Source of the DNA: Candidatus Bilamarchaeaceae archaeon
GTDB taxonomy: Archaea; Micrarchaeota; Micrarchaeia; Anstonellales; Bilamarchaeaceae
Length of the DNA stretch: 12,379 nucleotides
Reading direction: 5' to 3'
Assembly: GCA_038851325.1 (NCBI GenBank)
Contig: JAWCKZ010000017.1
Coordinates: 1-12,379, forward strand
Every line of letters begins with the position of its first letter. The first letter of the stretch is position 1. The position numbers and the translations under genes were made by a program. Of the stretch, positions 6,954 to 9,205 are shown piece after piece. A model generated the notes under the pieces. The model saw only the letters and a list, made by a program, of their open reading frames with translations, searched no databases and had not been told where the DNA came from.

Positions 6954-7263
6954 ACAGCCAATTCTAAAGACGTGCTTTCCAAAATTCGTATGCAGAGATC
7001 AACTCCAGTTGATCCTGCTGGAGGGTACTGCTATCGGACTCCGACTAAGCCATGCATGTCTACGGCTGGACTTCTAGCCGTGGCGGAATGCTGAGTAACA
7101 CGTAGTCAACCTAACCTAAGGACGGGGACAACCTCGGGAAACTGAGGACAATCCCAGATAGGCGATGGGGACTGGAACGCCTCATCACCGAAATGGCTGG
7201 TGAATTGGAGCCAGTCCGCCTTAGGATGGGACTGCGGGGGATTAGGTAGTTGGTGAGGTAACG

Positions 7264-7304
7264 AATTTTTCAGCGATTTTTAGAAAGCGTTGGAAAATTT
7301 ACAG
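7264..7304 (+). other. 16S intron 1 (family A, 41 nt, about E. coli 265)
   Basis: Strict BHB: helix GTAA/TTAC, bulges CG|A and AG|G, outer stem GGTGAG/CTCACC. Restores GGTAACGGCTCACC. Confidence 0.92.
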
Positions 7305-7393
7305 GCTCACCAAGCCGATAATCCCTAGGGGCCATGGGAGTGGTGGCCCCCAGAGGCACACTGAGACAAGGGTGCCAGCCCTACGGGGTGCAG

Positions 7394-7435
7394 ACGTGCG
7401 ACAGCACCGATGTATGGTGATGGAACACGGCATAA
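7394..7435 (+). other. 16S intron 2 (family B, 42 nt, about 354)
   Basis: Helix GTGC/GCAT, bulges AG|A and AA|C, relaxed outer side. Restores CCTACGGGGTGCAGCAGG. Confidence 0.9.
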
Positions 7436-7550
7436 CAGGCGCGAAACCTCCGCAATGCGCGCAAGCGTGACGGGGGGAGTCCGAGTGGCGACAACTTTGT
7501 TGTCGTCTTTTGCCGAGTGTAAGCAGCTCGGAGAATAAGGGTGTGGGCAA

Positions 7551-7591
7551 ACACAAAACGCGCACGATATATGGACGCGTGAGTGGTTCAA
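7551..7591 (+). other. 16S intron 3 (B-related loop GATATAT, 41 nt, about 509)
   Basis: Helix GGGC/GTTC, bulges AA|A and AA|G. Restores GGGCAAGACTGGTG. Confidence 0.88.
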
Positions 7592-7607
7592 GACTGGTGG
7601 CAGCCGC

Positions 7608-7650
7608 ACGCTATTTGTTCAGGTTTTTAGGAAGGCAAATGGCGGGCTAG
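7608..7650 (+). other. 16S intron 4 (family A, 43 nt, about 525; 530 loop)
   Basis: Helix AGCC/GGCT, bulges GC|A and AG|C. Restores CAGCCGCCGCGGTAA. Confidence 0.92.
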
Positions 7651-7734
7651 CGCGGTAACACCAGCGCCTCAAGTGGTACCCACGAATATTGGGCCTAAAG
7701 CGTCCGTAGCCGGTTTGGCAAGTCTTCTGTGAAA

Positions 7735-7777
7735 AGATGTTGCCTCGTGGAGCGATTTGCGAGACTTCGTCTCACAA
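7735..7777 (+). other. 16S intron 5 (family C-like architecture, 43 nt, about 609)
   Basis: Helix GTGA/TCAC, bulges AA|A and AA|T, inner stem GATG/CGTC. Restores GTGAAATGTTGGGG. Confidence 0.88.
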
Positions 7778-7789
7778 TGTTGGGGCTCA

Positions 7790-7831
7790 ACGCATGACAG
7801 CGCCGATGTATGGCGATGGAATGCGGGTTAT
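7790..7831 (+). other. 16S intron 6 (family B, 42 nt, about 621)
   Basis: Helix GGCT/GGTT (wobble-rich), bulges CA|A and AT|A. Restores GGGGCTCAACCC. Confidence 0.9.
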
Positions 7832-7992
7832 ACCCTAACGCGTGCAGAAGATACTGCCTGACTCGGGAGCGGGGGAGGGCAGGGGTACACCCGGGGTAGG
7901 GGTAAAATCCGTTGATCCTGGGTGGACCACCAGTGGCGTAGGCGCCTGTCCAAAACGCGTCCGACGGTGAGGGACGAAAGCTGGGGGAGCGA

Positions 7993-8037
7993 AACACGAG
8001 ATAGCCAGGTTTTTAGGAAGGGCTACCGAGTGTTCAA
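7993..8037 (+). other. 16S intron 7 (family A, 45 nt, about 781; boundary +/-1)
   Basis: Helix GAGC/GTTC, bulges GA|A and AA|A. Restores GGAGCGAACGGGATTAG. Confidence 0.88.
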
Positions 8038-8126
8038 ACGGGATTAGATACCCCGGTAGTCCCAGCTGTAAATTATGCAGACTTTGGTGTTACGCGCGAG
8101 TAATCGCGCGTAGTGCTGTAGCGTAG

Positions 8127-8161
8127 ACACACACTGTCGAACGACGAAGAGTGTGGCGTAA
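8127..8161 (+). other. 16S intron 8 (unassigned family, 35 nt, about 866)
   Basis: Helix GCGT/GCGT (with G-U pairs), bulges AG|A and AA|G, inner stem CACAC/GTGTG. Restores GCGTAGGTGTTAAG. Confidence 0.85.
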
Positions 8162-8199
8162 GTGTTAAGTCTGCCGCCTGGGGAGTACGATCGCAAGAT

Positions 8200-8235
<36 letters not shown>

Positions 8236-8312
8236 CCGTGGATGCTACGGTTCAATTGGATACAACGCCGGGAACATCACCAAGGGCGACGGCAGCATGA
8301 AGGCCAGACTAA

Positions 8313-8357
8313 ACAAGGTCTGAGGGTTTTTAGGCACGTACTCAGACCTTGGTTCAA
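8313..8357 (+). other. 16S intron 9 (family A, 45 nt, about 1015)
   Basis: 11-bp inner stem CAAGGTCTGAG/CTCAGACCTTG; helix GACT/GTTC has one mismatch; bulges AA|A and AA|A. Restores CAGACTAAAGATCTTG. Confidence 0.8.
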
Positions 8358-8414
8358 AGATCTTGCCTGACAAGCCGAGAGGTATTGCATGGCCATCGTC
8401 AGCTCGTGGCGTGA

Positions 8415-8456
8415 ACGCGTGACAACGCAGATTTATTGCGGTGGAACGCGGTGTAA
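8415..8456 (+). other. 16S intron 10 (family B, 42 nt, about 1080)
   Basis: Helix GCGT/GTGT (wobble-rich), bulges GA|A and AA|A. Restores CGTGAACTGTCC. Confidence 0.9.
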
Positions 8457-8470
8457 ACTGTCCGGTTAAG

Positions 8471-8517
8471 ACCTTTGAAATGTAGCGCATTTCAAAATTT
8501 GCTACCAAAGGTAGCAA
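8471..8517 (+). other. 16S intron 11 (family C, 47 nt, about 1094)
   Basis: Helix GTTA/TAGC, bulges AG|A and AA|T, inner stem CCTTTG/CAAAGG. Restores GGTTAAGTCCGGCAACGAGCG. Confidence 0.92.
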
Positions 8518-8656
8518 TCCGGCAACGAGCGAGACCCATGCCCATAGTTGCTAATCTCTTCTCCGGAAGGGATGCACTCTACGGGGACTGCCCGCGTTAA
8601 GTGGGAGGAAGGAGTGGGCGACGGTAGGTCAGTATGGTCCGAAACCCTTGGGCTAC

Positions 8657-8701
8657 ACACGAGGTTCGGGTTTTTAGGAGTGCACGAACCGAGTGGGCCA
8701 C
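8657..8701 (+). other. 16S intron 12 (family A, 45 nt, about 1226; first of a tandem pair)
   Basis: Helix GGCT/GGCC, bulges AC|A and AC|A, inner stem CAC-GA-GGTTCG/CGAACC-GA-GTG. Confidence 0.88.
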
Positions 8702-8743
8702 ACGCATGACAGCGCCGATGTATGGCGATGGAATGCGGGCCAC
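8702..8743 (+). other. 16S intron 13 (family B, 42 nt, about 1226; second of a tandem pair)
   Basis: Follows intron 12 directly; helix GGC(C/T)/GGCC, bulges AC|A and AC|A. Removing both restores GGGCTACACGCGG. Confidence 0.88.
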
Positions 8744-8837
8744 ACGCGGCATACAATGGGTGGAACAATGGGTTGCGACTCCGAGAGGAGAAGCTAATCC
8801 CCTAAATCCACTCTCAGTTCGGATTGAGGGTTGCAAC

Positions 8838-8881
8838 ACAAGGTTCAACCAGGTTTTTAGGAAGGGTTGAGCTTGGGCAAA
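8838..8881 (+). other. 16S intron 14 (family A, 44 nt, about 1320)
   Basis: Helix TGCA/GGCA (3 of 4 pairs), bulges AC|A and AA|T. Restores GTTGCAACTCACCC. Confidence 0.85.
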
Positions 8882-8938
8882 TCACCCTCATGAAGCTGGA
8901 ATGGCTAGTAATCGCAGGTCATCATCCTGCGGTGAATG

Positions 8939-8970
<32 letters not shown>

Positions 8971-9044
8971 GTCATCCAAATGTGTTTTCGGTGAGGCCCC
9001 GGTTATTGCCGGATTCGAACCGAAGATACGTGAGGAGGGCTAAG

Positions 9045-9088
9045 AGCTTTGAGCTGGTGCTCAAAATTTGCCAGCCAAGGGCTAGCAA
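9045..9088 (+). other. 16S intron 15 (family C, 44 nt, about 1494; decoding site)
   Basis: Helix GCTA/TAGC, bulges AG|A and AA|T. Restores AAGTCGTAACAAGG. Confidence 0.92.
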
Positions 9089-9108
9089 TCGTAACAAGGT
9101 ATCCGTAG

Positions 9109-9150
9109 ACGCATGACAGCGCCGATTTATGGCGATGAAATGCGACGGAA
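9109..9150 (+). other. 16S intron 16 (family B, 42 nt, about 1514; helix 45)
   Basis: Helix CCGT/ACGG, bulges AG|A and AA|G. Restores CCGTAGGGGAACCTGCGG. Confidence 0.92.
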
Positions 9151-9205
9151 GGGAACCTGCGGATAGATCACCTCCAAATTTTATTTGAGCGTGCGAGGAA
9201 GCACA

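Follow-up and report, generated by a model that had tools for sequence, protein, structure and literature searches.

At one site of the 16S rRNA gene of an archaeon assigned to Candidatus Micrarchaeota, 87 nt are inserted that read as two introns of different families placed end to end. The locus raises the question of whether these are two separate introns or one, how a second intron came to share the site of the first, and in what way the two would be removed from the transcript. The gene lies in a 12,379-nt stretch of DNA (the window) from a genome of 899,799 bases in 18 contigs, here called G000; its relatives are likewise designated by G numbers.

Mini-introns of the 16S rRNA gene

The 16S rRNA gene occupies positions 7002–9176 of the window on the forward strand and contains 16 mini-introns. 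A search with the archaeal SSU rRNA model (Rfam RF01959) gave a match at 7002–9069 on that strand with 984.5 bits, which is the sole 16S copy found in G000. The match exceeds the 1478-position model by ∼590 nt and contains big unaligned blocks. It stops at 9069 because the introns at 9045–9088 and 9109–9150 split the last 60 nt of the gene; the true 3′ end, GATCACCTCCA with the anti-Shine-Dalgarno region (9166–9176), is located downstream of both. In a MAFFT alignment of the window gene with the full-length 16S genes of 17 relatives (18 genes, several of them intron-free and 1491–1495 nt long), the inserts are distributed over 15 sites and are 35–47 nt each, plus the single 87-nt insert. The inserts split universally conserved sequence, for example around the 530 loop and, at the 3′ end, close to positions 1494 and 1514.

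In the BHB geometry, exon positions −6 to −3 pair with intron positions n−5 to n−2, each strand carries a 3-nt bulge, and cleavage takes place behind base 2 of the bulge. This is the standard register, and its support in the present gene is its consistent fit to all 16 introns. The central helix (H) is complete (4/4) in 14 of the inserts and has three of four pairs in the other two, which is above chance, as a complete helix is expected at random with a frequency of ∼0.02 per site. The first intron base, which is the third base of the 5′ bulge, is A in 16/16 introns, and so is the first base of the 3′ bulge. Computed splicing left 0 mismatches over a 28-nt junction relative to an intron-free homologue for 14 of the 16 introns.

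Within each family, the introns follow one plan, with a conserved hairpin core and a 6-nt tail, the first four bases of which are complementary to the local exon. The exon tetramer is self-complementary at 6 of the 15 sites (counted by eye). Family A is characterized by the loop GGTTTTTAGG, which is present in 18 hairpin inserts in G000, G006, and G014, located in 16S and 23S genes; the stems of these inserts have differing sequences, with complementarity kept. In the window gene, all on the forward strand, family A comprises the introns at 7608–7650 in the 530-loop region (H 4/4, intron-side helix h′ of 11 bp), 7993–8037 (assigned from its loop and the table of BHB registers), 8313–8357 (H 3/4, h′ 11), 8838–8881 (H 3/4), and 8657–8701, referred to below as intron A. 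An A-like intron with the loop GATTTTTAGA is found at 7264–7304 (H 4/4, h′ 11, exon-exon helix h of 8 bp).

Family B is represented by intron B (8702–8743), an intron at 7790–7831 that follows E. coli position ∼621 and has the tail GGTTAT, and an intron at 9109–9150 that follows position ∼1514 and has the tail ACGGAA, in which ACGG is complementary to the exon CCGU. The site at 7790 is occupied in G000 only among the 18 full-length 16S genes. Two further introns are diverged and B-like, one at 7394–7435 (24/26 identical to the B core, H 4/4) and the other at 8415–8456 (33/38 identical to a copy on contig C8 that lies in what is, by eye, a probable tRNA gene). The core CAAAATTTGC defines family C, with introns at 8471–8517 and 9045–9088, which were placed from the alignment and the BHB table, as were a mini-intron without family assignment at 7551–7591 and one of 35 nt at 8127–8161. 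The intron at 7735–7777 has orthologous copies in G005, G006, and G014. Tandem G.A/A.G pairs a few pairs into the stem were observed in both families A and B. A K-turn or C/D-box reading of family B was rejected by eye, as the tandem G.A/A.G pairs have no adjacent 3-nt bulge and C/D boxes are absent.

Similar inserts were observed in other RNA genes of this genome. An SRP RNA gene at 2523–2827 of the window, on the reverse strand (Bacteria_large_SRP, 93 bits; Archaea_SRP, 90.6 bits, below the gathering score of 96.5), contains a 45-nt insert at ∼2627–2671 in the apical loop of helix 8. The insert resembles the family-C core and, judged by eye, forms a BHB in which the exon GCCG pairs with the tail CGGC; its excision yields CAGGCCGGAAGGAGCAG, and it is probably a mini-intron. 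The 23S rRNA gene (locus L153, contig C13:5569–9220, reverse strand) has 10 inserts relative to that of G005, a member of the same genus. These include four family-A copies, inserts of 39 and 41 nt with B-like loops (by eye), one of 54 nt whose ends are B-like, and two composites of 263 and 130 nt. At the site of the 130-nt composite, G006 has a 72-nt version. Among relatives, the 16S gene of G014 (L022, 2586 nt) has inserts at 24 alignment sites and so exceeds the window gene, and that of G027 from the same order (L017, 3766 nt) contains long AT-rich inserts of 748, 806, 392, and 259 nt.

Other inserts were considered as candidate stacks. At alignment site 652, the 104 nt inserted in G014 are introns of 55 and 49 nt with an 8-nt exon between them and form no stack; the 105- and 87-nt inserts of G028 are single long hairpins by eye, and the 263- and 130-nt inserts of the G000 23S gene are made of repeated units of another family.

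Structure and predicted splicing of the stack at site 1226

The 5′ exon, which ends in GGGCTAC at 8656 and corresponds to E. coli C1226 at its last base, is followed by 45 nt of intron A up to 8701, 42 nt of intron B up to 8743, and the exon ACGCGG from 8744 onward. Both introns end in GGCCAC. Excision of the 87 nt joins GGGCUAC to ACGCGG and gives the conserved sequence with 0 mismatches in 28 nt relative to an intron-free homologue. The first-pass annotation had described two introns of different families abutting without an exon and had numbered them 12 and 13. The letters are as it described, and the insert map gives the same numbers (12th and 13th of 16). The family assignments also hold: A carries the GGTTTTTAGG loop, and 8702–8739 of B is identical to 7790–7827 at 38/38 positions (34/36 for 9109–9144). 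Both introns have the helix-bulge-helix geometry of archaeal BHB introns, and their computed removal restores the mature RNA. They also correspond to hairpin mini-introns, as each is shorter than ∼50 nt, has no ORF, and is predicted in the minimum free energy (MFE) fold to form a hairpin that keeps the BHB.

All elements of the stack are on the forward strand. The 5′ exon strand of the central helix is GGCU at 8651–8654, which can pair 4/4 with either 8696–8699 or 8738–8741. It is followed by the bulge ACA at 8655–8657, which contains the 5′ splice site of A (cut between 8656 and 8657). Intron A forms a hairpin of 3 bp, tandem G.A/A.G, and 6 bp with the loop GGUUUUUAGG, and ends in a site-specific tail, GGCC plus AC. 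The GGCC of this tail (8696–8699) belongs to both central helices, as the 3′ strand in that of A and as the 5′ strand in that of B. The next bulge, ACA at 8700–8702, is shared, so that by sequence logic and the predicted fold the bond between 8701 and 8702 would serve A as its 3′ splice site and B as its 5′ splice site. Intron B consists of one A, an irregular stem of 14 positions with tandem G.A/A.G, the loop GAUGUAU, and a GGCC plus AC tail. Its 3′ splice site is placed by the BHB register in the bulge ACA at 8742–8744, with the cut between 8743 and 8744. The 3′ exon begins with ACGCGGCAUACAAUGG (8744–8765) and, joined to 8656, gives the conserved mature sequence, the same as in intron-free homologues across the junction.

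The BHB of A (BHB-A) has H formed by GGCU (8651–8654) and GGCC (8696–8699), 4/4, with an h′ of 3 bp followed by G.A/A.G and 6 bp, and an h of 2 bp. In BHB-B, H is formed by GGCC (8696–8699) and GGCC (8738–8741), also 4/4, with an h′ of 5 bp followed by G.A/A.G and further pairs, and an h of 3 bp. This register is the best among those that give the same product, of which there are 5 for A and 12 for B. The 12 registers of B result from an 11-nt direct repeat, GGGCCACACGC, on either side of it, and as all of them correspond to one sequence, any of them could mark the point at which B was inserted in the DNA.

It had been proposed that the 3′ end of A mimics the end of the exon and can serve as the 5′ helix strand for B. 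In agreement with this, the exon strand GGCU and the tail GGCC are both self-complementary, if wobble pairs are allowed. Stacking is possible because the exon strand is self-complementary, so a tail that pairs with it (GGCC; RGYY) necessarily resembles it. The 3′ end of A would thereby recreate the half-site that a B-type intron requires, namely GGCY-AC before the cut and A-CGC after it.

Folding of 8636–8765 with RNAfold gave a free minimum of −49.9 kcal/mol, with the GGCC/GGCC helix and both hairpins present; in this unconstrained fold the A tail (8696–8699) is paired with 8738–8741. When the individual motifs were forced, the energies were −48.6 kcal/mol for BHB-A, −47.1 kcal/mol for BHB-B, and −41.3 kcal/mol for the outer combination, in which the outermost bulges are used. 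BHB-A and BHB-B are mutually exclusive, since the A tail takes part in both central helices and the bulge at 8700–8702 belongs to both. Thus, A and B compete for the A tail, neither interrupts the other, and each can form its entire BHB while the other is still present. In both one-intron intermediates, the forced BHB lies within 1.3–2.0 kcal/mol of the free minimum, which bears out the earlier claim that either order of removal gives a valid BHB. Sequential splicing of A and B is predicted on these structural grounds. An epsilon2-like endonuclease and RtcB would have to act twice, on A first or on B first, which would release one circle of 45 nt and one of 42 nt and leave the conserved mature junction.

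Both types of enzyme are encoded in G000. A 391-aa ORF on contig C1 is a splicing endonuclease with an N-terminal PF02778 domain and two PF01974 stretches (PF01974, 85.1 bits), a length and layout that agree with what the accessible part of the ARMAN-2 report gives for its epsilon2 endonuclease, a broad-specificity, three-unit enzyme that cleaves relaxed motifs (PMC3239211). A second PF01974 match is a 159-aa ORF, and RtcB is found with 559 bits. The RNA runs listed each contain at most 0.08 of the sampled words of the locus. We infer that splicing occurs, and in which order, from the DNA and the predicted structures.

Two other accounts concern the fate of the insert in the RNA. The 87 nt could be a single composite intron that is removed in one step at the outer bulges, with the inner junction being a fossil of the insertion. 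The outer combination (exon GGCU with the B tail GGCC) has a 4/4 central helix and the same 2-bp exon-exon helix as intron A, and since epsilon2-type enzymes cleave relaxed BHB motifs, as indicated in the accessible part of PMC3239211, one-step removal is possible. An 87-nt circle is, in addition, predicted to refold into a BHB made up of both hairpins and the GGCC/GGCC helix, so it could be resolved later. However, the intron-side helix of the outer combination is just 1 bp, which disfavours this route; its forced fold is 5.8–7.3 kcal/mol worse than the inner folds and 8.6 kcal/mol worse than the free minimum, and the inner junction has kept a perfect 3-4-3 geometry. We therefore consider a composite intron unlikely. 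That the inserts are expansion segments kept in the mature rRNA would be compatible with the fact that the case for their removal is built on DNA and predicted folds. Against this stand the BHB geometry of all 16 inserts (14 with H 4/4, two with H 3/4), their location inside universally conserved sequence (for example around the 530 loop and, at the 3′ end, close to 1494 and 1514), and the occurrence of family B in tRNA-Leu genes that ARAGORN calls as tRNA only after its removal, and the probability of such retention is practically negligible.

Probable arrival of intron B on an occupied site

At site 1226 of the 18 aligned 16S genes, there is no insert in 15, a single 45-nt A-type intron in two (G006 and G014), and the 87-nt insert in the window gene only. 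G006 belongs to the same genus as G000, and G014 to another genus of the same family. The site was also surveyed in 176 species-level genomes of the order, 98 of which belong to the family. An insert of 30–60 nt was found in G006 and G014, with G000 also matching through its B part; a match in G173 was rejected as an unrelated upstream repeat. An insert of 61–91 nt is present in 1/176 genomes, G000 itself, and none of the other 175 has B at this site. The relatives with only one of the two introns, for which the first-pass annotation had suggested a search, thus exist, and both carry A.

A tree based on exons only has the topology (G006,(G000,(G003,G005))), with supports of 0.99 and 0.93. G006 and G000 share eight intron sites, the stack site included, and there are no introns in the 16S gene of G003 and two in that of G005, which suggests wholesale intron loss in the G003/G005 sub-lineage, nested within the intron-rich G000 and G006. 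From the tree, the shared sites, and these inferred losses, A appears to be the older resident, with B gained in the G000 line. The presence of A without B in two relatives, the restriction of the double insert to 1/176 genomes, the 38-nt identity to the 7790 copy, and the occurrence of B cores in other genera likewise indicate that B arrived later, on an occupied site. The proposed second insertion at an occupied or regenerated site is therefore upheld: A stands alone in two relatives, one of which (G006) branches outside G000. Intron A of G000 and that of G006 have the loop in common and very different stems despite 92.2% identity of the exons, so site 1226 may have been invaded independently in the two lines rather than A being inherited.

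To judge whether the assembled DNA is real, we used contigs built per run from 31-letter words for three runs (X1, X2, and X3) of one hot-spring study that may include the source sample of the genome; hot springs are the origin of the related metagenome runs. A path from the exon through A into B was recovered with 0 differences at 8607–8731 in X1 and X3 and at 8601–8731 in X2, and a path from B into the exon, also with 0 differences, at 8702–8915 in X1 and 8710–8807 in X3. The contigs crossing from A into B extend 30 letters on the B side, one under the 31-letter bridging rule, and break, as expected, at the repeated B core. Contig depths are 6.8–9.4, compared with 7.8–10.8 in the flanks. None of the 15 joints listed, out of 17, skips 42 or 45 nt at the site.

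Two accounts that dispense with a new insertion can be judged against these data. In one, A-only and B-only alleles were joined, or repeats collapsed, during assembly. The B core occurs three times in the gene, and such repeats confuse short-read assemblers. The two kinds of path described above, from the exon through A and 30 nt into B and from B into the exon, argue against an assembly join, as do their depths near those of the flanks, and a word that runs from the A tail into B would be impossible if the alleles were separate. A concatenation of this kind, which had been named as the observation that would overturn the stack, was looked for in the DNA contigs and not found in the three runs, which makes an artefact very improbable. 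In the other, the stack arose by recombination between A-only and B-only alleles through the microhomology GGGCYACACGC. The 11-nt direct repeat GGGCCACACGC that flanks B is exactly what unequal exchange between such alleles would leave, yet a palindromic central helix would by itself be enough to give this repeat. Moreover, no B-only allele is present in the 176 genomes of the order, and no skipping joint at the site is seen among the 15 joints listed for the three runs. A metagenome scan for B directly after GGGCYAC returned 80 loci of 90 matches, all of them chance matches in protein-coding DNA, with no rRNA or B intron among them; the pattern was exact, so diverged copies would be missed, and the collection may omit records of the window genome. 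We regard this recombination as improbable.

With a probability of about 0.75, we favour the reading that the 87 nt are two separate, abutting BHB introns, of which A is the older resident and B a recent copy from a mobile family, and that they are removed in two rounds in either order. Allowing ≤3 mismatches, the 36-nt B core is present in 8/176 genomes, all from one family (seven of the 98 besides G000). In G001 it occupies the site of the 9109 intron, and in G012 the one that holds the 8127 intron in the window gene. G106 has one copy at a different 16S site (35/36) and one in a second gene (36/36), and in G084, G090, G150, and G151 the core lies between one common pair of flanks. The exon tetramer is GGCY at 6 of 11 B copies (by eye). 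In five of the relatives' B loci, ARAGORN found 0 tRNAs in the unspliced sequence; after computational removal of the intron, two were called as tRNA-Leu(GAG) in G106 and tRNA-Leu(TAG) in G090. The three loci that gave no call share flanks with one of these two tRNA-Leu loci. Family B thus occupies three 16S sites of G000, and in other genera it is found, with 0–3 mismatches per 36 nt, at two more 16S sites and in tRNA-Leu genes; such near-identical bodies in different genes and positions are the mark of a mobile BHB family.

The 36-nt core of 7790–7825 and 8702–8737 is identical to that in the tRNA-Leu(GAG) gene of G106 (L033), which belongs to another genus. 16S exons are ∼86–88% identical between genera (G000 compared with G014, G018, and G007; G106 is not among the pairs). 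A 36/36 match between genera is conserved beyond neutral drift, either through selection or strong constraint on the core or through lateral spread. In G000 itself, a B-like intron was observed at C8:30838–30879, in the apparent D-loop of a tRNA gene with a long second insert; ARAGORN makes no call for this gene even after the B-like intron is removed.

The DNA around B suggests how it might have arrived. The 38-nt block identical to the 7790 copy runs from ACGC to GGG, and an A-only allele would read GTGGGCCAC followed directly by ACGCGG, with ACGC in common with the block on the left and GGG on the right. B may therefore have been copied at the DNA level from 7790 by a template switch or ectopic conversion that was bounded by these microhomologies and re-entered 11 nt upstream, which would leave the duplication GGGCCACACGC; this route is a guess. 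As far as the sequence goes, the 11-nt repeat fits a palindromic BHB that resembles a duplication equally well. Target-site duplication was rejected as a rule of the family, as a clean direct repeat is found only at 8702 and none at 7790 or 9109. The 7790 intron is a possible donor of the 8702 copy.

A wider reading, which we put forward tentatively, is that BHB mini-introns of Micrarchaeota are currently active DNA-level mobile elements that home on any half-motif with which their tail can pair (here GGCY-NN, followed after the cut by A) and build head-to-tail stacks that are peeled off singly through the shared bulge. Under this reading, a self-complementary tetramer would let the intron tail rebuild the target, and copying from 7790 to 8702 would have left two traces, the 38-nt block bounded by ACGC and GGG and the 11-nt duplication. 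The same copying process might lie behind the repeat-swollen tRNA and 23S introns of G000. A long tRNA intron on contig C1 is composed of 74-nt tandem units, with a BHB-like register at the unit junctions in which the central helix has four G.U pairs.

The locus bears on how protein-spliced archaeal introns spread without a homing endonuclease. The age of a recent copy can be set here against that of its neighbours, and a possible donor is located 900 nt away in the same gene. The target of B was the splice site of another intron. A recent insertion of intron onto intron is thereby documented, and the rule that the tail pairs with the exon tetramer means that self-complementary tetramers permit stacking. 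The predicted substrate, in which a single bulge is used both at the 3′ end of one intron and at the 5′ end of the one after it, is described in no paper that we found. With 16 introns in conserved primer regions, the lineage would also escape amplicon surveys.

Relation to known BHB introns and twintrons

Short (<50 nt) hairpin ('HP') BHB introns have been described in the 16S genes of Thermoproteales, Desulfurococcales, and Aigarchaeota (Jay and Inskeep 2015, PMC4496867). As far as the accessible text of that paper goes, the introns of the window gene resemble them in having no ORF, a length of <50 nt, a hairpin that keeps the BHB, and a location in conserved parts of the 16S gene. They differ in their host, which belongs to the Micrarchaeota (DPANN), in their number of 16 in a single gene, and in that site 1226 lies outside the 13 loci given there (374, 548, 722, 781, 803, 901, 908, 919, 978, 1093, 1205, 1213, and 1391). 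Neighbouring HP loci are separated by 8 nt (1205/1213) or 7 nt (901/908) in the same account, whereas in the stack the exon has zero length and one bulge and one helix strand are shared. The words 'tandem' and 'adjacent' have 0 matches in PMC4496867. HP introns of different loci are reported there as too different to compare; here, one family occurs at many loci.

Transposing families are known among the tRNA introns of Thermoproteales (Fujishima et al. 2010, as described in the accessible part of PMC4090602), where the BHB requirement is thought to set the targets and the mechanism is given as unknown. Family B resembles them in having near-identical bodies at different positions and in unrelated genes, and differs in that it crosses the boundaries between rRNA and tRNA and between genera, with one copy placed on another intron. 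The closest comparison by phylum is ARMAN-2 (Candidatus Micrarchaeum acidiphilum), for which the accessible part of PMC3239211 describes disrupted tRNA genes with many non-canonical introns, one tRNA having introns at the adjacent positions 53/54 and 59/60. The two organisms share the phylum and an endonuclease similar to the 391-aa protein in length and domain content. That work concerns tRNA, and in the same part of it rRNA mini-intron families or stacks are not described. Other papers on Micrarchaeota, in their accessible parts, mention 16S introns or one 522-bp insertion (PMC5498576, PMC8784108). In the literature that we covered, we found no description of mini-intron families in Micrarchaeota rRNA and no report of BHB introns that abut with a zero-length exon, for which Fujishima 2010 and Sugahara 2007, on multi-intron tRNAs, could hold a precedent. 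The chemistry of the BHB mini-introns is thus ordinary, and it is the arrangement, with a shared bulge, a shared strand, and no exon, that we did not find described.

As outlined in the sources available in part, group II/III twintrons and spliceosomal stwintrons are similar to the stack in that two introns occupy one place and are spliced consecutively. In a twintron, however, the inner intron interrupts the outer one and the order of removal is fixed, whereas in the stack neither intron interrupts the other and either could be removed first. The chemistry is also different, as removal of A and B would depend on a protein endonuclease and a ligase.
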